From IMG/VR virus record IMGVR_UViG_3300009509_000015, positions 11,361 through 75,360 of that record: 64,000 nucleotides of DNA. One strand, 5' to 3'. A program made the position numbers and the translations under genes. Origin of the DNA: a virus. The first letter of the stretch is position 1, and every line of letters starts with the position of its first letter. Positions 5,032 to 44,819 of this stretch are shown one piece after another. Below the pieces are notes generated by a model. That model ran no database searches. It was given only the letters and a program-made list of their open reading frames with translations, and was not told the origin of the DNA.

Positions 5032-5060
5032 CTGTGCGATAAACACCGAGCTTTGTCCAG

Positions 5061-5090
5061 TAAAATCCCTCCAGAAATGGGGGGATTTTA
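5061..5090 (+). terminator. intrinsic terminator after tRNA block
   Basis: TAAAATCCCTCCA-GAAA-TGGGGGGATTTTA hairpin then T-rich tract. Confidence 0.75.
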
Positions 5091-5116
5091 CATTTATTTT
5101 AGTCTTTCGATTGTAG
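5087..5116 (+). promoter_or_regulatory. putative late promoter of fibre operon
   Basis: TTTACA-N17-ATTGTAG; same motif precedes five minus-strand virion/lysis genes. Confidence 0.65.
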
Positions 5117-5155
5117 AACTTAGATTACTAGTAATTTACTATCGGAGGATTTACT

Positions 5156-5530
5156 ATGAGTATCTCAAACTTTCTTGAAAACGAACTGCTAGACACTGCT
5201 TTAGCAACAGGCGCATACAGCACAGCAAACGTGTATGTATCTGTCCACACTGCTGACCCTGGAGAAACAGGAGCTAGTGAGGTAACTGGTGGTGGCTATG
5301 GTCGTCAAGGCCCTACTACCTTCTCTGCTGCTGCTTCTGGCACAACTTCCAACACAGCACAGATCGACTTCACAAACATGCCTGCTGTAACTGCCACACA
5401 CATTGGTTTGTGGGATGCTGCAACTGCTGGTAACTTCTTGTGGGGTGGTGCTCTAACTTCTAGCAAGACGCTAAATGGTGGAGACACTTTCCGCATTGCT
5501 GCTACAGATTTGGACGTTTCTCTAGACTAA
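5156..5530 (+). CDS. small virion fibre subunit (putative major fibre protein)
   Basis: SNFLEN..LD...VSVHTADPGETGASEVTGGGYGRQ...HIGLWDAATAGNFL pattern seen in small phage fibre-associated proteins; first gene of operon. Confidence 0.65.
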   Translation: MSISNFLENELLDTALATGAYSTANVYVSVHTADPGETGASEVTGGGYGRQGPTTFSAAASGTTSNTAQIDFTNMPAVTATHIGLWDAATAGNFLWGGALTSSKTLNGGDTFRIAATDLDVSLD

Positions 5531-5559
5531 TAAAATATTGGAAAAATATCTATGCACTT

Positions 5560-5593
5560 ATAAGCAGCATATGTGTTCTACTATGCTGCTTAT
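5560..5593 (+). terminator. hairpin between small subunit and large fibre genes (leaky terminator or mRNA stabiliser)
   Basis: ATAAGCAGCATA-N10-TATGCTGCTTAT, 12-bp perfect stem, weak U tract. Confidence 0.6.
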
Positions 5594-5619
5594 TGTGGTT
5601 AGATTAGCGGTGGTGAGAA

Positions 5620-8313
5620 ATGACCTTAGCGCAACCCTATTGGCGGTTTAGAAATGATAATTATGGCTTAAACGTAGATAACGGGTGGTTAGCAGCCATA
5701 AATACTGCCCCAAGTTCACTAGATATGGGGCAGCAATTTCGTTTGCGAATAGAAGTTGCAGAAACTGCTGGTACTTCTACCACAGATGGCTTTAAACTAC
5801 AAGTAAAAGTAAATGCAGGCTCGTGGAATGACTGTGGTACACAGTCTAATGGTAGTAATACTGCTGTAATTGTTACTAACTCATATCAATACGCTGATCA
5901 AGATGCAACAACTAACTTATTATCTGGTTCTTCAGAAACATTTGAAGCTGGTGAAGGTTTATACGACGATAACCTTACAGCCTCACACACCCTACAAAAC
6001 GAGCATACTGAATTTGAGTGGGCGCTATTAACCCTAAAGAACTATTATGACTTCGCTGTTTTAGCAGACGGAGACACAATATATTTAAGAGTTGTTAGGG
6101 ATGATGGTACTGCTCTTGATAGCTACCAAGATATTTCATATACAGTTAATGAGCCTGCTGGTTTTATTGGTGGTACATTTGTAGAAAGCGCACATTCATT
6201 AGGCCCAATTCAAGACAGCAACGGAAACCTATACTTTTTTGGTGAGCACAACTCACAGAACAACCCAACAAATAACAACGAACCATGTATGTGGAAGTCT
6301 ACTGATGATGGTGTAACTTGGGATGAAGTAGACGGTACTAACAGACCTGTAGGTTCTGACTTTGAATCTGCTGACATGCAAGTTATCAACGATATTATTT
6401 ATATAGCACAGCATAGAGGTAGTGCTGGTATCAGGCTACATGTTTTCAACATGAGTGCTGCTTCTAGTAACCAAGATACATGGACAACAACAGACGAAGT
6501 AGTAGATAGTTCAACTCCAGAAGCAGACCAAGCAGTAGCATTAGCCGTTCTTTCTGATGGAGATATGTGGTGCTTTTACAGAACTACAGTAAGCAGTTAC
6601 GAAAGCATAGTTTATAAACGTCGCACATCTGGATCATGGGGATCGAGAAACACACTAGACACACAGGCAACTACGAACTTTACCTGGGTAGCTTGTGTTG
6701 TTGGCGAGAGCAACCTTACACACGTTTTCTACCAAGAAATCACTAACGGTACTGGTAATATCTGGCATAGATCATTGTCAAGTGGTGGCACATTATCTGG
6801 TAGGGAAAGCATTTCTACTGCATCTGGCACAAACAACAACAACTCAAAAGGTATTGCCAAACCTTTATATTGGGATGACGCTGGTGATGAAATTATTTTT
6901 GTTGTTTACCGTGAAAGTGATAACGATGCGTGGTCACGTACCATTACAAACGACGGTACTCCAAGCTCAGCTACAGGCCCAATAAACACCTATTCTATGG
7001 ATCGTTCTTTAGGTGGTAGCGCCCAAGCAGCCATGCAATTAGTAGGTGATGGTACTGGAAATGCTTGGTTAATTTATCTAGACAATGTTAACCAACACCC
7101 GTACTTACTTGAGTATGTTTATGGTACTGGTTGGGGAAGTGAGATAACACTAAGCAGTACATTAACAGCAAACTTTCAACAAATTGGTCATTACACTATT
7201 TCAAATGGAGATGAGGTCGTTGGTTATGTACTAGAAACTCACCCATATTGGGATACAGCAGGTGCTTATGGTGACGATGGCTTGATGTGGTACTACAGCT
7301 ATGTCTTAGTGCCTGGAGGAATAGCTTCGTTATCTGGTACAGGATCATTAAGTGCAATTGGATCAGTTATTGCTGGTTTTGCTACAGTTACTGGAGCAGC
7401 AGCCTTAACAGGTACAGGTACATTAAGCGCAACAGGACTGCAAATACAGCCTAGACAACCAGTATTACTAGATACAGTTACTAGTGAGGCTAATGGAGTC
7501 TCACTAACAAGTGCCACAATAACACCACAACCAAACTCTTTATTAATAGTAGTAGTTACTAATGCACATGGAAGCTCTCCAATAGGGTGGTCTACGTGTT
7601 CCGACACTCTTACAGGAACAGGCTCGTGGACTAGAAATGCTGATATAGATGATAATCAGTCAAACAACTATGGTATAGCTGTTTGGACAGCGCAATGTGG
7701 AGCAACCCCAGGTAGTGGAACAGTAACACCAACATGGACTAATAGCACATCCAACAGAAAAGTAATGTTTGTATTTGAAGTACCTTTTGGTTTTGATACA
7801 ACTACACCAATAAGACAAACAAAAACTGGATCAAATGCTACAGCAACACCATCATTAACATTTGATAATACCCCTCTTGCTTCTTCAACGGTTTTTGGTG
7901 CTATAGGTTCTAAAAGTGATCCTGACTCAGTTATTACGCCAGGAACTGGCTTTACTGAAGTAGCTGAAGACGTTAGTGGTGTGTCTAGTCCGACAAATAC
8001 AGGACAAGCAGAGTATGACTTAACACCTGTAGATGGGGTAGTAGATTGGTCTGGTGCTGGAACTCTTAATAATGTATTTTTAGCTATTGAAATACAAGAA
8101 GCTGCTGATGAAGTTGGGGCAGCAGCTTTAACTGGAACAGGTACATTGTCAGGAGCAGGAATTGGCATAGCACCAAGCGCCGTAGCTATGACAGGTACAG
8201 GTACGCTAAACGCAATTGGTAAACAACTATTATGGCCTTTCTCTGATGACTTCACAGGATCAAATGATGATCCTTGGGCAGCAGGAAAGTGGACAACGGG
8301 CGCAAGCCCATAA
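5620..8313 (+). CDS. large fibre/adhesin protein 1: Asp-box beta-propeller, beta-sandwich, 4 GxGTL repeats
   Basis: KSTDDGVTW Asp-box; repeats such as GAAALTGTGTLSATG; C-terminal LWPFSDDF...W....KW peptide. Confidence 0.7.
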   Translation: MTLAQPYWRFRNDNYGLNVDNGWLAAINTAPSSLDMGQQFRLRIEVAETAGTSTTDGFKLQVKVNAGSWNDCGTQSNGSNTAVIVTNSYQYADQDATTNLLSGSSETFEAGEGLYDDNLTASHTLQNEHTEFEWALLTLKNYYDFAVLADGDTIYLRVVRDDGTALDSYQDISYTVNEPAGFIGGTFVESAHSLGPIQDSNGNLYFFGEHNSQNNPTNNNEPCMWKSTDDGVTWDEVDGTNRPVGSDFESADMQVINDIIYIAQHRGSAGIRLHVFNMSAASSNQDTWTTTDEVVDSSTPEADQAVALAVLSDGDMWCFYRTTVSSYESIVYKRRTSGSWGSRNTLDTQATTNFTWVACVVGESNLTHVFYQEITNGTGNIWHRSLSSGGTLSGRESISTASGTNNNNSKGIAKPLYWDDAGDEIIFVVYRESDNDAWSRTITNDGTPSSATGPINTYSMDRSLGGSAQAAMQLVGDGTGNAWLIYLDNVNQHPYLLEYVYGTGWGSEITLSSTLTANFQQIGHYTISNGDEVVGYVLETHPYWDTAGAYGDDGLMWYYSYVLVPGGIASLSGTGSLSAIGSVIAGFATVTGAAALTGTGTLSATGLQIQPRQPVLLDTVTSEANGVSLTSATITPQPNSLLIVVVTNAHGSSPIGWSTCSDTLTGTGSWTRNADIDDNQSNNYGIAVWTAQCGATPGSGTVTPTWTNSTSNRKVMFVFEVPFGFDTTTPIRQTKTGSNATATPSLTFDNTPLASSTVFGAIGSKSDPDSVITPGTGFTEVAEDVSGVSSPTNTGQAEYDLTPVDGVVDWSGAGTLNNVFLAIEIQEAADEVGAAALTGTGTLSGAGIGIAPSAVAMTGTGTLNAIGKQLLWPFSDDFTGSNDDPWAAGKWTTGASP

Positions 8314-8321
8314 GGTGATAT

Positions 8322-11300
8322 ATGACTTGGGCAGTAGATACCTCAACTCAGGGTACATATGGAACTAGTAACCCTAATACACTAAGCCACACATGTTCAG
8401 CATCTACTAAGTTGCTGGTGCTGGCTATATTTGTCAATGGTACAACTGCCAGGACAGGAGGAGCACCAACCTACAATGGTACTCCTATGACTGATAGTGG
8501 TCAAGGTTTCGTTTTCTTATCTGGTGGTGAGGCTGGTGTTGAAGTATGGTATTTAATAGAACCTGATACTGGAAGTAGCTATACTGTTAGTGTTCCTAAT
8601 ACGGGGGCAGTAAACTGTGACTTATCTGTAACATCATTTGAAGCTACTAATAATGCTGCTTTTGATAACTCAAATAGTGCGTCTGCTGATTCAGGAACTT
8701 GGAGTGTATCAGTAACTGTTTCCAACAACAACTGTTTAATGTTCGGTGCGGTTGGATCAGGCGAACGTGACACGCCTACTGCTGGAACAAACTATACTCT
8801 CATCCATACTTATGACGCAGGAAACCAAGTTTGGGGATCAGAGTATGACCTTGATGCGGGTAGTTCAGGGAGTATTACAGTAGATTTCACCCCTGCTCGT
8901 GCTGATGACTGGGGCTTAATCGGTATAGGCTTCTATGAAACAACAACAGCTACTGTAACAGGTGCTGCTGCACTAACTGGTACTGGTTCTTTATCTGCTA
9001 TTGGAAAAGGTATAGCAAGTTCTGCTGCTGCTCTATCAGGAACAGGAACAATTACTAATGTTCCAGCTTATGCTATTACTAGTTCTGCTGGAGCTTTATC
9101 TGGAACTGGTACGCTATCAGCAATAGGGTTCAGGTTAATTACTGGTGTAGCTGCACTATCTGGTACAGGCACGCTATCAGCAATAGGTGCTAGAGTAGCA
9201 TTGGGAGTAGCTGCATTATCTGGCACAGGTACATTATCTGCTGCTGGCTATATAGTATTTCCATCAGAAGTAACAATACAAAATAACCAAGGTAGACTAT
9301 CATTTGCTGATAGTGCTCAAGCATATGCTAGAGCTATATCTACTATGGCAGATCAATCTAATGCAGAACTTACAGCTAAGTTTACTTTTGGTGATCTTGT
9401 TTCTGAAGGTTTACTAAGATTTCATCTACGTGGTTCAGGAGACTGGGCAGACTGGCAAACACCTACAACAGCCTACGAAGTAGAGATTGCCAACACTGGT
9501 GACTGGAAAGTTTATAGGATTCAAAGTGGTAGCCGTACACAAATAGGCACTACACAAACTTGGACTTCCACAACAGAACAACACTCTATTAAATTTCAAG
9601 TAGTAGGAACAGATATACGTGCTAAAGTATGGCGCACAATTGACTCAGAACCTGGGTGGCAGAAAGATATTGACGACTCTACCAGTGGATTTACTACAGC
9701 AGGTACATTACAGCTAGGCTATTTCCGTGTAGCTGGATCACATTATGTTGATCTTGATGATGTTTCTGTGCAATCTCCAGAATCTGTAGAATTTGGTGTT
9801 GCTGCCCTAACGGGTACAGGTACTTTGTCTACATCTGGACTAGGCATAGCTTATGGTACAGCAGCAATATCTGGAACAGGTACGCTAACAGCTAAGTATG
9901 CTCATATACCACTTACAGACTTAATATATTGGCTAGACTTTTCTGATCAGACTGCTATATGGAAAACTTCTACAGAACGTATAGGTGCAGATAATGACAC
10001 AATCTATGAAATAAAAGACAAGTCTGGCAATAACTATGGTGCAACACAAGCAACAGAAGGACTAAGACCTACTTGGAAAACTAATATACAAAATGGCCTT
10101 GCAATGTCTTTGTGGAATCCAGCTACTACTACAAACATGCGTGGGCCTTATGGAGACATGAGTAGTGTTTTACCAACAAATACAGGTACAGCTTTTGTTG
10201 TACTCATCCAAGATGGAACAAATGCAAATAACACTGTTATAAACACTACTATAGCCTCTGTTGCTGGTGATAACCAGATAACAATACACGCAACATACTC
10301 AAATAACCTGTACTTTGATATGGGTGATTATGCTGGTGGTGGACGAATTTACGGAGCACAACCATCTGGTTGGGATGACGTTGCACATATCTATTCTGCA
10401 TATAGATCAGGGTCTAGTGGAGAAATATCTGTTGATGGTGCTCCTATAGTTTTAACAGTGGACACTTATACAGATGACTTTGAGCCTGGAAGAGATGTTG
10501 GATATTTGTATACGATAGGAGCAAACTTCCCAGGAAACCAAATCAACTTTAAAGGATATATTGGCGAAATAATCTTTTATAAAACAAAACTTTCTGCTGC
10601 TGAAATACTACAAGTACAGAGATACCTAACAGATAAGTGGAGTGTAACATTAATACAAACTAGCGCAGCTTCTTTATCAGGCACAGGAACTCTATCAGCA
10701 ACAGGATCAGCTATAGTATCTGGTGCTGCAAGTTTGACAGGAACTGGAACATTAACAAGCTCAGGTACAGGAATTGCTTCCAGCGCAGCTACATTAACAG
10801 GTACTGGTACACTAACAGGCATACCACTTGTAATATCATTTGGTGTAACTTCATTAACAGGTACTGGTACGTTATCAGCAATTGGAACATTCTTTAGTGT
10901 ACAGCAAACTTCTGCTGCTTTAACGGGTACTGGTACACTAAGCGCAATAGGTTATGCAATTGCATCAAGCGCTGGTACTATGTCTGGTACTGGAACACTA
11001 ACAGGCGTACCATTTGTATTATCATTCGGTGTGTCTGCTCTAACAGGTACTGGAACATTATCAGCAATAGGTAGTGCTGCTGGTATAGAACAAAGTGCTG
11101 CTACACTTTCAGGAACAGGCACATTATCAGCAATTGGTGAAGCTACTGCTTTTGGTGTGACCGCATTATCTGGCACTGGCACGTTATCGTCAGCATCATA
11201 TGCTATAACATCAAGTGCTGGAGCACTTTCAGGAACAGGCACATTATCAGCAATTGCTACAACACTTGGACTTAAGACTGGCGTTGTATCAATGAGTGGT

Positions 11301-11843
11301 ACTGGTACATTATCCGCTATACCACAAGTCTTCGCAATAGCTACCGCTTCGCTAACAGGTACTGGTACGTTAACTACAGCAGCCTATCAGATAAGCATAA
11401 ACAATACAGCAAGCTTGTCTGGCACTGGCACAATGTCTGTTATTGGCTCAGTAGGTGGTATAATTCAAGGTGTTGCTACACTAGATGGTACTGGTACATT
11501 ATCAGCTATACCATTCGTTGTTAGCTACGCTGTAGCCACAATGTCTGGAACGGGTACGTTAGTTAGCTCTAGCCTAATTATCGTGCCTGTAAGTGTGACA
11601 ATGAGTGGTACAGGTACATTAAGTGCTACAGGATATGCACTAGCCCTTGGCGTAGTTGCCATGACAGGAACTGGCACACTAAGCGCAATTGGCTCAGGTA
11701 TAGGAATTGAGACTGGCGTAGCCTCATTAACAGGTGTAGGTACGCTAACAGCAGATTACAGATTATGGCCTTTCACAGACGATTTCACATTCAGTGATGA
11801 TTCTGTTTGGGATGTAAGCAAGTGGGAAGTAACAGAGGTATAA
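8322..11843 (+). CDS. large fibre protein 2: N-domain, ConA-like and LamG-like domains, ~25 GxGTL repeats
   Basis: WLDFSD...KDKSGNNY..TQAT...RPT and FKGYIGEIIFY (LamG-like); 20-24-aa repeats; C-terminal LWPFTDDF peptide. Confidence 0.7.
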   Translation: MTWAVDTSTQGTYGTSNPNTLSHTCSASTKLLVLAIFVNGTTARTGGAPTYNGTPMTDSGQGFVFLSGGEAGVEVWYLIEPDTGSSYTVSVPNTGAVNCDLSVTSFEATNNAAFDNSNSASADSGTWSVSVTVSNNNCLMFGAVGSGERDTPTAGTNYTLIHTYDAGNQVWGSEYDLDAGSSGSITVDFTPARADDWGLIGIGFYETTTATVTGAAALTGTGSLSAIGKGIASSAAALSGTGTITNVPAYAITSSAGALSGTGTLSAIGFRLITGVAALSGTGTLSAIGARVALGVAALSGTGTLSAAGYIVFPSEVTIQNNQGRLSFADSAQAYARAISTMADQSNAELTAKFTFGDLVSEGLLRFHLRGSGDWADWQTPTTAYEVEIANTGDWKVYRIQSGSRTQIGTTQTWTSTTEQHSIKFQVVGTDIRAKVWRTIDSEPGWQKDIDDSTSGFTTAGTLQLGYFRVAGSHYVDLDDVSVQSPESVEFGVAALTGTGTLSTSGLGIAYGTAAISGTGTLTAKYAHIPLTDLIYWLDFSDQTAIWKTSTERIGADNDTIYEIKDKSGNNYGATQATEGLRPTWKTNIQNGLAMSLWNPATTTNMRGPYGDMSSVLPTNTGTAFVVLIQDGTNANNTVINTTIASVAGDNQITIHATYSNNLYFDMGDYAGGGRIYGAQPSGWDDVAHIYSAYRSGSSGEISVDGAPIVLTVDTYTDDFEPGRDVGYLYTIGANFPGNQINFKGYIGEIIFYKTKLSAAEILQVQRYLTDKWSVTLIQTSAASLSGTGTLSATGSAIVSGAASLTGTGTLTSSGTGIASSAATLTGTGTLTGIPLVISFGVTSLTGTGTLSAIGTFFSVQQTSAALTGTGTLSAIGYAIASSAGTMSGTGTLTGVPFVLSFGVSALTGTGTLSAIGSAAGIEQSAATLSGTGTLSAIGEATAFGVTALSGTGTLSSASYAITSSAGALSGTGTLSAIATTLGLKTGVVSMSGTGTLSAIPQVFAIATASLTGTGTLTTAAYQISINNTASLSGTGTMSVIGSVGGIIQGVATLDGTGTLSAIPFVVSYAVATMSGTGTLVSSSLIIVPVSVTMSGTGTLSATGYALALGVVAMTGTGTLSAIGSGIGIETGVASLTGVGTLTADYRLWPFTDDFTFSDDSVWDVSKWEVTEV

Positions 11844-11844
11844 T

Positions 11845-14800
11845 ATGTCTTGGACTTTAGATACTTCAACTCAAGGAACTTATGGAGCAAGCGATCCTAG
11901 TACACTAACGCATACGTGTTCTAGTGCTACTCGCTTGCTAGTCCTTGTTATCTTTGTTAATGGTACTACTGCTCGTACTGGTGGTGCTCCTACTTACAAC
12001 GGCTCTTCTCTAACAGATAGCGGTCAAGGATTTGTGTTTGATACTGGCGGTGAAGCTGGTGTAGAAATATGGTACTTAATAGAACCAGATACAGGCAGTG
12101 GATATACTTTAAGCGTTCCTAATACAGGAGCAGCAAATATTGACCTATCTGCTATGTCATTTGAGCCTACATCAGGCAACACAGCAGCATTTGATGGAGC
12201 AAATAGTGCAAGTGGTACAACACAGAACCCATCAGTATCTGTTACAATCTCAAATAACAATGCCCTAATGGTCGGTGGCTTGGGATCAGGAGATCGTGAT
12301 GCCCCTACTGCTGGAACAAACTATACGCTGGTTCATACGCAGGATGCTGGAAACCAAACATGGGGAAGTGAGTACGATCTAGACGCTGGAAGTTCTGGTT
12401 CTATAACTGTATCTTTTAGCACAGCACGAGCAGACGACTGGGGCTTGATTGGTATAGGTTTCTATGAAACCGCAGGAACAACTGTTGTTACTGGAGCAGC
12501 AGCCCTAACTGGTACTGGATCGCTGTCAGCTATAGGCTCATTCTTTTCAATAGAAACTGGTGTTGCACCACTAAGCGGAACAGGAACATTATCCGCAGCC
12601 TCTTACGCTATCGCTAGTTCTGCTGGCGCTATGTCTGGAACTGGCACATTAAGTGCCATTGGTACACTAATTACTATATACGGGGCTGCTGCACTAACAG
12701 GTACTGGATCACTAACTGGTATAGGTTATGCAATTTCCTTTGCAGTTGCAACAATTAGTGGCACAGGTACGCTTTCTGCAATTGCAAAGGGTATAGTACA
12801 GGGGGTTGCAAATCTAACAGGCACAGGTACGCTTTCTGCAATCGGAACTTTCTTTACACCAGCACAAACTATCACAGGAGTAGCAGCACTTTCTGGTACT
12901 GGAACATTATCTAGTAGTGGTATTGCAATTTCTATTGCAACAGCTAGCCTATCTGGTACAGGAAGTCTAGTTGCTATTGGTGCTCCTGTAGGCGCAGATA
13001 CTATAGTAGATGTTCAAACTAACCAAGGTAGAATTTACTTACCTGATAGTGCTGGCGTATATGGGCGTGCTATAGCCAAGAGAATGTTAAAGAAAACAAA
13101 CTCTGAAGTATTACTATACTTTAAGTTTGACGATACAAACGCAGAGGGTGTGTTCCGAGTATTTATGCGTGCCTCTGGTGATTGGAACACAGCAGACAAA
13201 CCTACAGATGGTTATGAAGTAGCTATCTCAAACTCTTCTGGTGGTTTAACACTTAATAAAATACAAAGTGGTACACGGTCTAATATAACAAGCGGTAGCT
13301 GGACAGCAACGACTGCTGCTCAGTGGTTGAGATTCCAAACAAACGGTAACGCACTTAAAGTAAGAGTGTGGGCAGATGGTTCTGGTGAGCCTGGAACATG
13401 GGATATTGATACAACTAATGCAGACATTTCTACTGCTGGCGTGCTACAGGTAGGTTTCTGGAGGGTATCTGGAACACATACAATGTACATCGACAGCATC
13501 AATGTCCATGATGTTGTAGGTTTCCAGTACGGAGCAGCAGCCTTAACAGGAACTGGAACACTATCTGCTATTGGATCAGCAATTGTCTACGGAGCAGCAG
13601 CCCTTTCTGGAACGGGCACGTTAAGTTCTGCATCAACAGCAATAACATCTAGCGCTGCTAGCTTAACAGGTACAGGCACACTAACAGCTATTGGTGAAAA
13701 GGTAACAGCTATTGTTACTGGTGTTGCAAGCTTATCAGGTACAGGTAGCCTAGCTGCTACTGGATATGCTATAGTCTCTAGCGCAGCTACATTATCTGGA
13801 ACGGGCACGCTAACAGCTATTGCTACTTACTTCTCTGTTGGAGCAGCCTCACTAACTGGAACTGGTACGCTATCTGCTACTGGTTATGCTATTGTCTCTG
13901 GTGTAGCCTCACTAACTGGAACTGGTACGCTAACTGCAATAGGCAATCCTGCTGGAGTAATCCAGGGCAATGCCAACCTAACAGGCACAGGCACACTATC
14001 TTCAAGTGCTACAGTAGTTGTCTATGCTACAGCAGCATTAAGCGGAACAGGAACATTAACTTCAGCAAGCCTAGCCATAACAAGTAGTGCTGCAAGCCTA
14101 AGCGGTAATGGTACTTTATCAGCAATTGGTACTAGGATACAGCTTGGAGTAGTACAATTGTCAGGTACTGGTACGCTAGCTGCTGTACCATTTGTAATAG
14201 TACCTTCAGCAGCTACACTAAGCGGAACTGGCACACTAACAAGTGCTGCTTATGCTATAACAACTGGAGCAGCATCATTAACTGGTGTGGGATCACTAAT
14301 TGCTAGACCAGAGATCGAGAACTTAATCACTGGAAGGGCAGCCCTAACTGGAACTGGTACGTTATCTGCTATTGGATACGGTATAGCTTCAAGCACAGTT
14401 TCAATGAGTGGTACTGGAGTTCTAACAGGTGTAGGCTACGCAATAGCAAGCACTACAGCAAGCTTAAGTGGCAATGGAACATTAACTGCTACACCATTTG
14501 TATTATCATACGCTACAGCAGCCCTATCAGGACAAGGAACATTAACAGCCACTAGCTATGCTATAGCTTCTGGAGCAGCTAGCTTAACTGGACTTGGCAC
14601 ATTAGTTGCTAGACCAGAAGTTGAGGGATTATTAACTGGCGTTGTATCTATGACAGGTACTGGTACAATGTCTGCTATACCATTTGTACTATCTTATGGT
14701 AATGTGTCTATGTCTGGACTAGGCACACTAACTGCAAAAGCATCAGGAGAAATTACTGGAGCAGCTACCTTATCTGGTACTGGCGTACTAACCGCAAGCA

Positions 14801-15240
14801 GCCTAGCAATAACTTCAAGTGCTGTAACAATGAGTGGTACTGGTGCTATGAACGTAGTTGGTATAGGTGTGTCAGAAAGCGCTGTATCAATGTCTGGCGC
14901 TGGTACATTAGCAGCCATACCACAAGTGTTTGCACTAGGTACTGTATCAATGTCTGGTACAGGAGTTCTATCTGGATCAGGTTATGGTATATCAATAGCA
15001 AATGCTTCGCTATCTGGACTAGGCACACTAACATCAACAGGTATTGCAATTGCTTACGCTGGCGCAAGTCTAACAGGACAAGGTACATTACTCGTAGTTA
15101 TAAGAGCTATACCAGCTACTTGGTTCTTAGAGGGATCGTTCATATTAACCATAGAGCTAGATGGTACGATTGTAGATACTGTAGAGTTAGATGCCCAGTT
15201 TGAGACTATTGAACTAGAGGGTAATACTTTCGAGGATTAA
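11845..15240 (+). CDS. large fibre protein 3: paralogous N-domain, ConA-like domain, ~34 GxGTL repeats
   Basis: First ~205 aa closely similar to protein 2; acidic TIELDG-type C-terminus. Confidence 0.7.
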   Translation: MSWTLDTSTQGTYGASDPSTLTHTCSSATRLLVLVIFVNGTTARTGGAPTYNGSSLTDSGQGFVFDTGGEAGVEIWYLIEPDTGSGYTLSVPNTGAANIDLSAMSFEPTSGNTAAFDGANSASGTTQNPSVSVTISNNNALMVGGLGSGDRDAPTAGTNYTLVHTQDAGNQTWGSEYDLDAGSSGSITVSFSTARADDWGLIGIGFYETAGTTVVTGAAALTGTGSLSAIGSFFSIETGVAPLSGTGTLSAASYAIASSAGAMSGTGTLSAIGTLITIYGAAALTGTGSLTGIGYAISFAVATISGTGTLSAIAKGIVQGVANLTGTGTLSAIGTFFTPAQTITGVAALSGTGTLSSSGIAISIATASLSGTGSLVAIGAPVGADTIVDVQTNQGRIYLPDSAGVYGRAIAKRMLKKTNSEVLLYFKFDDTNAEGVFRVFMRASGDWNTADKPTDGYEVAISNSSGGLTLNKIQSGTRSNITSGSWTATTAAQWLRFQTNGNALKVRVWADGSGEPGTWDIDTTNADISTAGVLQVGFWRVSGTHTMYIDSINVHDVVGFQYGAAALTGTGTLSAIGSAIVYGAAALSGTGTLSSASTAITSSAASLTGTGTLTAIGEKVTAIVTGVASLSGTGSLAATGYAIVSSAATLSGTGTLTAIATYFSVGAASLTGTGTLSATGYAIVSGVASLTGTGTLTAIGNPAGVIQGNANLTGTGTLSSSATVVVYATAALSGTGTLTSASLAITSSAASLSGNGTLSAIGTRIQLGVVQLSGTGTLAAVPFVIVPSAATLSGTGTLTSAAYAITTGAASLTGVGSLIARPEIENLITGRAALTGTGTLSAIGYGIASSTVSMSGTGVLTGVGYAIASTTASLSGNGTLTATPFVLSYATAALSGQGTLTATSYAIASGAASLTGLGTLVARPEVEGLLTGVVSMTGTGTMSAIPFVLSYGNVSMSGLGTLTAKASGEITGAATLSGTGVLTASSLAITSSAVTMSGTGAMNVVGIGVSESAVSMSGAGTLAAIPQVFALGTVSMSGTGVLSGSGYGISIANASLSGLGTLTSTGIAIAYAGASLTGQGTLLVVIRAIPATWFLEGSFILTIELDGTIVDTVELDAQFETIELEGNTFED

Positions 15241-15241
15241 T

Positions 15242-15607
15242 ATGACTAAACGAAAACAAGACTTTGTAACTTGGACAGGCAACGACGAAAAGATAGAGTT
15301 CACTGTTTATCAAGATGACGGTGTTACTCCTTTAAACATTTCTGCTGGCACACTTTCTTGGATAATGAAAGAATCAAGAACAGCAACAGCAGCATTAATT
15401 GAAAAGGAAACTGGTGGTCAAGGTATTTCCATTACTGATGGTGCTAATGGAAAGTGTCAAGTAGACCTTGATCCAGCAGACACTAATGGTTTAGAGGGCG
15501 CAAAATACTTTCATGAACTGAAACTAACTCTTTCTAATGAAACCAAAACAGTATCAGAGGGTACGGTCACGATCCATAGAAGTGGTTTCTCTGATCTTAC
15601 CCCTTAA
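15242..15607 (+). CDS. BppU-like Ig-fold virion adaptor protein
   Basis: GNDEKIEFTV..D...PLNIS...ITDGANGKCQVDLDPADT..L...YFHEL pattern. Confidence 0.6.
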   Translation: MTKRKQDFVTWTGNDEKIEFTVYQDDGVTPLNISAGTLSWIMKESRTATAALIEKETGGQGISITDGANGKCQVDLDPADTNGLEGAKYFHELKLTLSNETKTVSEGTVTIHRSGFSDLTP

Positions 15608-15610
15608 CCC

Positions 15611-15639
15611 TTGACAAATATTTTCAATTGTAGTATAAT
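15611..15639 (+). promoter_or_regulatory. sigma70-type promoter overlapping an ATTGTAG motif
   Basis: TTGACA-N17-TATAAT; also TTAACC(15604)-N17-ATTGTAG(15627). Confidence 0.85.
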
Positions 15640-43481: not shown

Positions 43482-44819
43482 TTATGCTAACTTAGCGTGG
43501 CGAACAAGAGCAAACAAGTTAGGATGTACGAAACGTGATGCAAGGTAACCTTTCATCATATAGTCGTAAGTATCCTTCACACGAGCAAGTTCGACAAAGC
43601 GGAACAATTGATCCTGTGGTCGCCCCATATCGTCAACCAAGCCAAGGATAGCTGCACCCCTGGTGCTGTTGCGGTTTACTAAGAAAATGTTCTGCTCACC
43701 AGTGCTCAAAGGCTTAATGGCAACAGGAGTTCTTGCGCCAGTATCCTTATAAGTTGCTACAGTACCATTTACAGTACCTTCAGCATTGTAGGTTAAAGCA
43801 GGAATAATGTCTAGTAACTGCAAGTTAGCATTACCAGTTGCTAGTCCTCTCCAGATCATGTAGAGAACGGCATTAGCGTCAGCAGTCCAAGAAAGATCAA
43901 TAGCATCAGAACCACCAGTTACGGCTACGTTAGCTTCTGTTCCAGCGATTTCCTCGCCATATACAGACACAGAAGAAATGTTGTAGTAGTACGTATCGGC
44001 AGCTAGAGCACCATTACCACTATCTTCAACAGCAGCCAAGTCAGCAGGACTTGTGCCTACACCAGAAGGTGCAACATAGTCAGACTCCAACATAGGAATG
44101 TCGTCATATGCGTTCATGCGAATCTTACCATCAGCAAGATCAATGCTAGTGATAGGAATTTGGACAGCAGACTGCAAGCCATCAACAACTTGGCGCATAC
44201 GTGTGCTCATAACCCACATCTTTGGGTCGTTGCGAACGCCACGAAATGCAGCAGCTTTAGCAATAGCTTCGTCTAGATCACCAAGAGCAATCTTGTTTCC
44301 ACCAGCGTCAATAACATTACCAACAGCGTTGTTCAACAGAGTTGGGAACAAACCACTGTATTGGTATGCGTCGCCTGTGAATCCCTGATCTGTAGCAGCG
44401 CCCCATAGGAAGCCGTACTCAAGGATATTAGCCATACCCTCAACAGAGCCTTCTAGTTCGGTAGCAAACGCATCAATGAAAGCAGCGTCAACAGCCTGTG
44501 CAAATCCAGTTACAGAACCCCAAATCCTTTGGATTTTGGTCTGTACGGTCTTGCGTGCGTACACGCTGTTCTTAGCGTTAGCAGGAGTTGTTTCACCTTC
44601 GAACCAAGCCTGTGGGTGGCTAGAACGTACATTATACTCGTGGGTCTTTCCACCAGCAGGCTTAATATCAATAAGCTCTGCAAGCGGTTGCAGCTTCAAA
44701 AGTTCCTCGTGTAGCATAGGGTCTAGATCATAAGGATTAAGAGCAGCCCCATCGCCAGCAGAGGTTAAGGCCTTCTGAAGTTGTGTTTCAACGTTTTTCT
44801 TAACGTTAATTTCGGCCAT
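43482..44819 (-). CDS. major capsid protein (HK97 fold) with inserted FN3-like domain
   Basis: Follows protease/scaffold; insertion TYYYNISSV..YGE...IDLSW...YMIWRG. Confidence 0.88.
   Translation of the reverse strand: MAEINVKKNVETQLQKALTSAGDGAALNPYDLDPMLHEELLKLQPLAELIDIKPAGGKTHEYNVRSSHPQAWFEGETTPANAKNSVYARKTVQTKIQRIWGSVTGFAQAVDAAFIDAFATELEGSVEGMANILEYGFLWGAATDQGFTGDAYQYSGLFPTLLNNAVGNVIDAGGNKIALGDLDEAIAKAAAFRGVRNDPKMWVMSTRMRQVVDGLQSAVQIPITSIDLADGKIRMNAYDDIPMLESDYVAPSGVGTSPADLAAVEDSGNGALAADTYYYNISSVSVYGEEIAGTEANVAVTGGSDAIDLSWTADANAVLYMIWRGLATGNANLQLLDIIPALTYNAEGTVNGTVATYKDTGARTPVAIKPLSTGEQNIFLVNRNSTRGAAILGLVDDMGRPQDQLFRFVELARVKDTYDYMMKGYLASRFVHPNLFALVRHAKLA

Follow-up and report, generated by a model that had tools for sequence, protein, structure and literature searches.

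A phage gene cassette that probably encodes a chain-like virion fibre of Gp80-family beads on three repeat-bearing rope proteins

Introduction

Chain-like phage fibres were recognised in 2023-2026 and are represented by three or four cryo-electron microscopy (cryo-EM) structures, which display from 2 to 11 bead dimers. In these fibres, an extended rope polypeptide is wrapped by dimers of the Gp80 fold "like beads on a string"; running through grooves in the monomers, it completes their incomplete sandwiches (PMC12609058). The known attachment points of the ropes are neck collar, nozzle or baseplate proteins. Here we analyse a cassette of five genes, named S, A, B, C and T in gene order, in a stretch of viral DNA of 64,000 nucleotides (nt) that corresponds to positions 11361-75360 of the 75,360-base IMG/VR record IMGVR_UViG_3300009509_000015 (hereafter the window, to whose numbering the coordinates of this genome refer). 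Its product is probably a virion fibre of the chain-like ("beads on a string") type known from the phages GP4, Bas63 and A1002, specified by one bead gene and three rope genes.

The Ralstonia podophage GP4 (PDB 8JOU; J Mol Biol 2023, as cited in PMC12609058 and PMC13730344) carries five gp80 dimers on a separately encoded elongated rope that is anchored to the collar, the fibre-tail adaptor gp77 (PMC13730344). In the Pseudomonas podophage A1002, eleven dimers build augmented beta-sheets together with the fibre-dock part of gp39, the nozzle-rope protein; the resulting fibre is called significantly longer than those of GP4 and VP1 (PMC13730344). The collar-whisker of the Escherichia myophage Bas63 / Sf14 (PMC12609058; PDB 9MT4) has only two dimers, placed on a short N-terminal extension of the collar protein itself.

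Results

A bead gene of the Gp80 family

The first gene of the cassette, S (5156..5530, plus strand), encodes a protein of 124 amino acids (aa) whose sequence places it clearly in the Gp80 family, the type of GP4 fiber I and the Bas63 whiskers. Its match to PF23140 in Pfam (Podophage GP4 fiber I protein gp80) has E 4.8e-35 and 121 bits, against a cut-off of 27, and that to the gp80 of PDB entry 8JOU has E 7.8e-13 over aa 3-114; S is assigned to phrog_240 and is the sole copy of the family in the 75-kb record. A relative of the cassette is present in G001, a 101.7-kb IMG/VR phage with an S-like gene and two ropes carrying 17 and 36 motifs. The two S proteins are 75.8% identical, whereas the ropes are only 33-44% identical, and conservation of S so far above that of the ropes fits one bead obliged to fit many sites.

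Repeats in the three large proteins

S is followed on the same strand by three large genes, A (5620..8313, 897 aa), B (8322..11843, 1173 aa) and C (11845..15240, 1131 aa), whose products share a short repeat. Counted as matches to the motif G-x-G-[TSVA]-[LMI], the repeats number 4 in A, 25 in B and 34 in C, 63 in total, which bears out the approximate counts given for the three proteins by the first-pass annotation, made from the sequence alone; A holds one extra, doubtful match inside a globular domain. The spacing is mostly 20 aa (range 20-25), with the core A-L-S/T-G-T-G-T-L-S/T-A and the column consensus I-A-S-G-A-A-S-L-S-G-T-G-T-L-S-A-I-G-Y-A. Globular domains divide the repeats into runs, 2+2 for A, 5+2+18 for B and 8+26 for C. 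No other open reading frame (ORF) of the 75-kb record has these repeats. At the DNA level, Tandem Repeats Finder reported a single 3-copy array with 72% match; the repeats are conserved as protein and not as DNA, and are therefore old and under selection rather than the product of a recent expansion.

The run of 18 repeats in B (10656-11765, aa 779-1148) shows a super-period of three repeats, with spacings of 20, 20 and 22 that add up to 62 aa, and recurring linker types such as ...TG-I/V-P-x-V-x-SFGV...; in C the long run shows less regularity. The super-period may reflect the duplication history of the run or a higher-order packing of beads. An AlphaFold2 (AF2) model of B alone gives each repeat as two short strands with a turn at G-T-G, at a predicted local distance difference test (pLDDT) score of 55-75 and a predicted template modelling (pTM) score of 0.36; the repeat units are thus given no confident self-contained fold by the model. 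Sixty-nine homologues of B were found in the protein database, and an IMG/VR protein-pattern scan with B returned no close relative.

The repeats as a probable rope for Gp80 beads

A self-similarity lag test was applied to genes adjoining Gp80-like genes in five unrelated cultured phages, together with controls. The best lag was 20 aa for GP4 gp79 (z 7.1), PBC5 gp13 (z 5.9), Qyrzula gp31 (z 11.3) and the N-terminus of Lietuvens ORF27 (z 2.9), and 20 aa was among the top lags of Itty13 gp15 (41, 10 and 20; z 2.2), whereas three neighbouring control proteins gave no 20-aa lag. GP4 gp79 also holds cores such as L-T-G-S-G-L-L and L-S-G-S-G.

Environmental viruses were covered by scanning IMG/VR with a degenerate pattern, set at DNA level, that requires two G-T-G-T-L cores at a distance of 60 nt. 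This matched 89 stretches, where a rough hand estimate puts the chance expectation below one, and an ORF with at least three tandem repeats was present at 53 of these loci. A Gp80-like ORF accompanied the repeats at 37 of the 53 (on the same strand at 36, upstream at 32 and directly adjacent at 22), against a background of about 1% among phage genomes (517 of 50,697), and the bead gene was confirmed by Pfam in four of five whole records. Co-occurrence of the two families, which the first-pass annotation had put forward as a check of its proposal, is strongly positive. Most of the other IMG/VR loci have between 3 and 18 repeats.

Protein architectures outside this genome link the two partners as well. 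In P0253, a Gp80 domain is followed by two GxGxL repeats in one chain, and of the 22 longer homologues 18 have two Gp80 domains in tandem, which amounts to a covalent dimer. Among the IMG/VR loci themselves no bead-rope fusion was found, the apparent long ORFs being upstream read-through. One locus (L062) has a repeat ORF whose last 35 aa share 49% identity with the Itty13 collar, which is of the GP4-gp77 type, an arrangement that echoes the rope-collar fusion of Bas63. The ropes of L062, L084 and G001 have no PHROGs family. Taken together, the period, the co-occurrence, the fusions, the collar-ended rope and the conservation of the bead argue from sequence that the GTGTL repeats are probably a rope.

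Several of these relatives have features of their own. The double-Gp80 proteins (P0241-P0252 and others), of about 250-265 aa, are common in metagenomes and are not described in the literature consulted. In the Sinorhizobium phage PBC5 (NC_003324; L004:6911-7201), an unannotated ORF right after the rope-like gp13 is homologous to the collar proteins GP4 gp77 (E 1e-15) and Itty13 gp14 (5e-12), and PBC5 thus has a full bead-rope-collar module; its record annotates the module merely as "head protein" and "hypothetical protein". ORF27 of the Sporosarcina phage Lietuvens (L003:6397-7320) directly follows a Gp80-like gene and joins a rope-like N-terminus of about 125 aa, with the 20-aa period, to a DUF2313 baseplate protein; its neighbours are annotated as baseplate proteins, which suggests bead chains anchored to the baseplate in a phage of a Gram-positive host. 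In G001 (L103:3083-7033), three extra genes lie between bead and ropes, two paralogues of about 470 aa and one gene for a 298-aa protein, so that the content of the cassette is variable. The sequences of the paralogues looked, by eye, like pectin-lyase-type beta-helix proteins, and these may be depolymerases.

Proposed assembly and stoichiometry

In the fibre that we propose, S would form dimers with incomplete beta-sandwiches, to be completed by strands of the extended rope. Every 20-aa unit in A, B or C would correspond to one docking site, and a bead-covered segment would be as long as its number of repeats dictates. Between the segments, the beta domains (ConA-like, LamG-like and others) would be binding modules. 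The result would be a long, flexible and multivalent fibre for reversible binding to cell-surface polysaccharide, with the N-terminus distal and the C-terminus, at the end of C, proximal to the virion, by analogy with all solved cases.

The number of beads per repeat can be approached from the solved systems. In GP4, the likely rope gp79 contains about 10-11 repeats, each some 20 aa long, against 10 gp80 chains in 8JOU, and the A1002 rope provides roughly 30 aa per dimer (PMC13730344). In Bas63, where rope length was judged from the residue numbers in the paper and the alignment range of 9MT4, the collar's immunoglobulin (Ig) domain begins to align at about residue 72, so that no more than about 70 aa remain for four monomers. 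These figures suggest 15-20 aa for each monomer, and therefore one repeat per monomer of S. Of the seven repeat runs here, six are even in length, as dimers would need. The best-supported ratio would accordingly be one S monomer per repeat, so that a set of A, B and C would take up about 63 copies, making about 31 dimers; the comparison of GP4 gp79 repeats with 8JOU chains favours the same ratio of about one small subunit per repeat as had been put forward earlier. The alternative is one dimer per repeat, with about 126 copies of S per set. Either ratio would give three to six times more sites than the longest described fibre, which has 11 dimers.

Comparison with solved chain-like fibres

With GP4 fiber I (PDB 8JOU) the cassette shares the bead family PF23140, a rope that is separately encoded immediately downstream of the bead gene and, in the likely rope gp79, a 20-aa period with an L-[ST]-G-[ST]-G core. 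In contrast to the five dimers of GP4 on a single 325-aa rope with no embedded globular domains, there are here 63 sites on three ropes of 897-1173 aa that carry lectin-like domains. GP4 is also a podophage with the gp77 collar (phrog_4137), whereas the present genome is without phrog_4137 and has a 1431-aa tape-measure gene. A1002 resembles the fibre proposed here in placing many bead dimers in tandem on one extended polypeptide through beta-sheet augmentation, in having a globular Ig-like domain inserted in the rope, and in its distal N-terminus; unlike it, A1002 fuses the rope to the nozzle and uses two bead proteins (gp40/gp41) for its 11 dimers, where the cassette has one bead gene, free-standing ropes and the larger number of sites given above. 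Bas63 has the bead dimers and rope-completed sandwiches that are proposed here, and an Ig-like collar anchor, which resembles T in fold (Z 9.4, root-mean-square deviation (rmsd) 2.0), but no rope-collar fusion is present here.

The first-pass annotation had proposed a filament in which each repeat donates a strand to a small subunit. That proposal matches the solved Gp80 architecture, although the subunits act as dimers and the principle had already been published in 2023-2026; the mechanism is an independent rediscovery of a published architecture. What is new here is the 63 sites against a maximum of 11 dimers, the three rope genes, the lectin-like domains, the tape-measure genome, conserved tails that resemble missing ConA strands and would make split-domain connectors likely, and the recognition that environmental viruses hold a large family of this kind without annotation.

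Rope architecture and embedded domains

A begins with an N-terminal beta domain (aa 1-180) and a central domain with one Asp-box (aa 181-564), followed by a first pair of repeats (7312-7446), a domain likened to the N-domains of B and C by eye on translations only (aa 610-830), a second pair of repeats (8110-8229) and a C-terminal tail, PF-S-DDFTG...W...KW (8230-8310). B has an N-domain (8322-8954; AF2 pLDDT 80-95), 5 repeats (8955-9257), a ConA-like body without its first strands (9258-9788), 2 repeats (9789-9908), a LamG-like region (9909-10655), the run of 18 repeats and a tail (11766-11840). C consists of an N-domain (11845-12486), 8 repeats (12487-12990), a ConA-like body (12991-13524), 26 repeats (13525-15111) and an acidic, beta-like C-terminal segment of 42 aa (15112-15237), which is the candidate virion-proximal end and is similar in character to the C-terminus of G001 R2, a rope of that phage.

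The first-pass annotation had described the domains between the repeats as adhesin-like, naming an Asp-box propeller, LamG and ConA-like folds, of which the last is the one that holds up well. B aa 312-487 is a jelly roll of the ConA-like lectin/glucanase fold, also seen in legume lectins and galectins (Z 12.6, rmsd 3.4, 170 residues aligned to 5zbt), with galectins at Z about 12 and a Foldseek match to CBM66 at E 1e-4, and C aa 383-560 is homologous to it (E 1.4e-37); both are, by fold, candidate carbohydrate-binding modules. The LamG assignment stays below threshold: B aa 530-778 matches Laminin_G_3 (PF13385) with E 5.5e-5 and 23.8 bits, under the cut-off of 27.6, and this part has an AF2 pLDDT of about 30; PF13385 is present in several homologues. 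The propeller goes back to one canonical Asp-box in A; a profile of A aa 181-564 matched BNR proteins in the PDB over just 19 residues (E 0.004), and BNR_2 matches three of 19 homologues at 6e-4. The N-domains of B and C, of about 210 aa, are all-beta, confident in AF2 and similar to stand-alone unnamed viral proteins, and a search of the ESM Atlas with that of B returned no name. Homologous repeat proteins elsewhere carry PhoD, DUF4038, GDSL, GDPD or LamG domains, and the rope is therefore a general scaffold for binding or enzymatic modules.

T as a candidate anchor

The last gene, T (15242..15607, plus strand), encodes a 121-aa protein of phrog_1084 that AF2 models as an Ig-like domain with a pLDDT of 94.8. 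Its best PDB matches are DT57C 8hqz_T (Z 10.8), T5 7qg9_J (Z 10.5), TP901-1 BppU (Z 10.2) and the Bas63 collar 9mt4_H, but generic Ig domains reach Z about 9, nearly as high as these phage anchors. We take the T5 chain 7qg9_J to be p132. The p132 protein is an Ig-like collar protein that anchors the side fibres of T5 (PMC10038345), and, with the N-terminal part of TP901-1 BppU, it belongs to the ring-forming Ig anchors of siphophage tail-tip side fibres (PMC10038345), which are the best structural matches of T and have no significant sequence match to it. T could possibly be an Ig-like anchor or collar. No link between T and GP4 gp77 was found in PHROGs.

Fusions in the T family place its members after rope-like periodic segments and ahead of a DnaT_2 domain, and a sub-threshold BppU_N match is present in just two fused members. 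The T-type Ig domain precedes DnaT_2 (PF20557) in P0186, is joined to a polysaccharide deacetylase in P0193, and precedes C-terminal extensions without a Pfam match in P0142, P0191 and P0075.

Expression signals of the bead gene

S carries the strongest Shine-Dalgarno (SD) sequence of the five cassette genes, GGAGGA (5144..5149), read from the sequence 6 nt before the ATG, and is followed by a hairpin with a perfect 12-bp stem and no U tract (5560..5593), as the first-pass annotation had noted for both signals. The region after S folds at -25.2 kcal/mol (z -3.2); the hairpin, which would act as an attenuator or a stabiliser, is not conserved in other loci, where the gap between bead and rope is mostly under 60 nt. 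The GC content at third codon positions (GC3) is 0.36 in S, the maximum of the cassette, compared with 0.38 in the capsid gene (43482-44819) and 0.20-0.29 in the ropes, portal, terminase and tape measure. The strong SD, the capsid-like GC3 and the hairpin are indirect signs that S may be made in excess. An ATTGTAG promoter that had been assigned to S is not supported: the motif occurs 24 times against 15.7 expected and is not enriched, 4 of 100 shuffles reaching 24 copies, and no sigma-70-like site was found upstream of S. Contigs from two RNA libraries, in pieces of 150-280 nt, cover A, B, C and T in small number, possibly through DNA carry-over, and none covers S.

Discussion

Alternative explanations

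We consider a chain-like virion fibre the likely product of the cassette, but a number of observations weigh against it. Contact between S and the repeats is predicted only, and gp79 would be the GP4 rope judging from its position, periodicity and phrog_19041, neither gp79 nor gp78 being present by sequence in the PDB. The whole large proteins, searched by sequence against Pfam and the PDB, yielded no meaningful hit and no match to a solved rope, 16 of the 53 repeat loci are without a Gp80-like ORF (many of these being truncated loci), and the RNA-library contigs, which miss S, give no expression ranking. The cassette also lies outside the virion module, among tRNA genes; a GP4-type collar was sought as phrog_4137 and had no match in the 75-kb record (about 85% complete), and T was considered as a conserved partner of the ropes and set aside, its family being absent from five other rope-bearing records, G001 included. 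One other reading is that the repeats fold on themselves, as a hairpin ribbon, meander or solenoid, into a shaft on which S would be an accessory whisker, cap or decoration at few sites. It draws on the regular two-strand hairpins that AF2 builds in every repeat without a partner, on the lack of sequence match to solved ropes and on the loci without a detectable bead gene, but the confidence of the repeat model is middling, bead and repeat genes co-occur and are often tightly adjacent, the 20-aa period is common to Gp80 partners in five cultured phages, P0253 joins a bead domain to repeats, and S is far more conserved than the large proteins; we regard such a shaft as improbable. We consider it very improbable that the cassette is an accessory (moron-like) island whose product, during infection, is an adhesin or matrix protein that is secreted or displayed on the cell surface. 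Its place within the tRNA array on the strand opposite to the head and tail genes, its own upstream terminator and the separate downstream promoter would suit such an island. Against it, Gp80-family proteins belong to the virion wherever they have been solved, the bead-rope pair sits among tail or neck genes in other phages, and inspection of the translations by eye, with no signal-peptide predictor run, revealed no secretion-signal-like N-terminus.

If the cassette does encode a chain-like fibre, its three ropes may be separate or joined. The C-termini of A and B share a conserved tail of 25 aa, PF-x-DDFT-x5-W-x3-KW, found also in P0028 and in the G001 rope R1. In P0060, a segment with the residue pattern of this tail (FTG-x5-W-x4-W, then x-I-Q-x-N-x-G-R) directly precedes each of three intact ConA-like copies, and the ConA-like bodies of B and C begin exactly after that tail point (x-I-Q-x-N-x-G-R), with rope repeats in front. 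By inserting there, the tails of A and B could supply the first strands that the ConA-like bodies of B and C lack, and the fact that A has a tail without a body and C a body without a tail supports such donor-strand joining of A to B to C, which we put forward tentatively. Also less likely than not is the fuller picture of ropes joined non-covalently into one ordered, branched super-fibre of well over 100 nm, with split ConA-like connectors and about 60-120 copies of the single bead protein, in which B and C would each leave an N-terminal arm, made of a globular domain and 5 or 8 beads, as a side branch. On the other hand, the three ropes may be independent fibres, each separately attached, with the tails of A and B docking elsewhere, on a virion protein or in cis; we give this close to an even chance. 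G001 has one tail and three headless ConA-like bodies, and strand donation is therefore not obligatory for folding; headless bodies are found in P0005 and P0006 too, and AF2 leaves the tail of B undocked, at pLDDT 35. Independent fibres do not, in turn, account readily for the match of the tails to the segment before each intact copy in P0060, for their conservation in four proteins, or for the complementary ends of A and C.

Implications

A two-part bead-rope system would, on this evidence, scale to dozens of docking sites, span several genes and carry lectin-like or enzyme-like modules along the rope. It would occur in a siphophage-type tape-measure genome as well as in the podophages and the myophage that have been solved, and be common in environmental viral contigs, whose large repeat proteins are now without annotation. 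Both partners can be annotated through one sequence signature, a gene for PF23140 that precedes one whose product has a G-x-G-T-L period of 20 aa, and the repeat count is a candidate molecular ruler of fibre length. Split-domain connectors, if true, would be a new way to join fibre proteins, and a super-fibre built with them would be a modular, extendable system, with repeat number as length and split domains as connectors, that has no described counterpart among phage fibres.

Genomic context

The record is 85% complete according to CheckV, and the window sequence is present in sediment metagenome runs. The whole cassette stretch is identical in two DNA runs, and the repeats are therefore not an assembly artefact. 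The contigs of both DNA runs break at 11133-11253, inside the long repeat run of B; the breaks are a sign of difficult assembly, and the window sequence is reproduced on both sides of them. Compared by megablast with 50,697 phage records, the cassette had no match, and cultured phages are only distantly related to this genome.

The minus strand of the record carries terminase, portal, protease and capsid genes together with the 1431-aa tape-measure gene, and the genome is therefore of the long-tailed, siphophage type. All five cassette genes lie on the plus strand, opposite to terminase, portal, capsid and tape measure, with tRNA genes on either side; the gene positions confirm the first-pass description of an operon within the tRNA region on the strand opposite to the head and tail module. 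The upstream boundary of the cassette is an intrinsic terminator after tRNA-Met (5060..5091, plus strand), with a 14-bp stem containing 6 GC pairs and a T-rich tail. At the downstream boundary, a sigma-70 promoter before tRNA-Gly (15611..15639, plus strand; TTGACA-17-TATAAT, 12/12 matches) starts 4 nt past the stop codon of T and about 70 nt ahead of tRNA-Gly, and host-type promoters are apparently in use for the tRNA genes of the phage.

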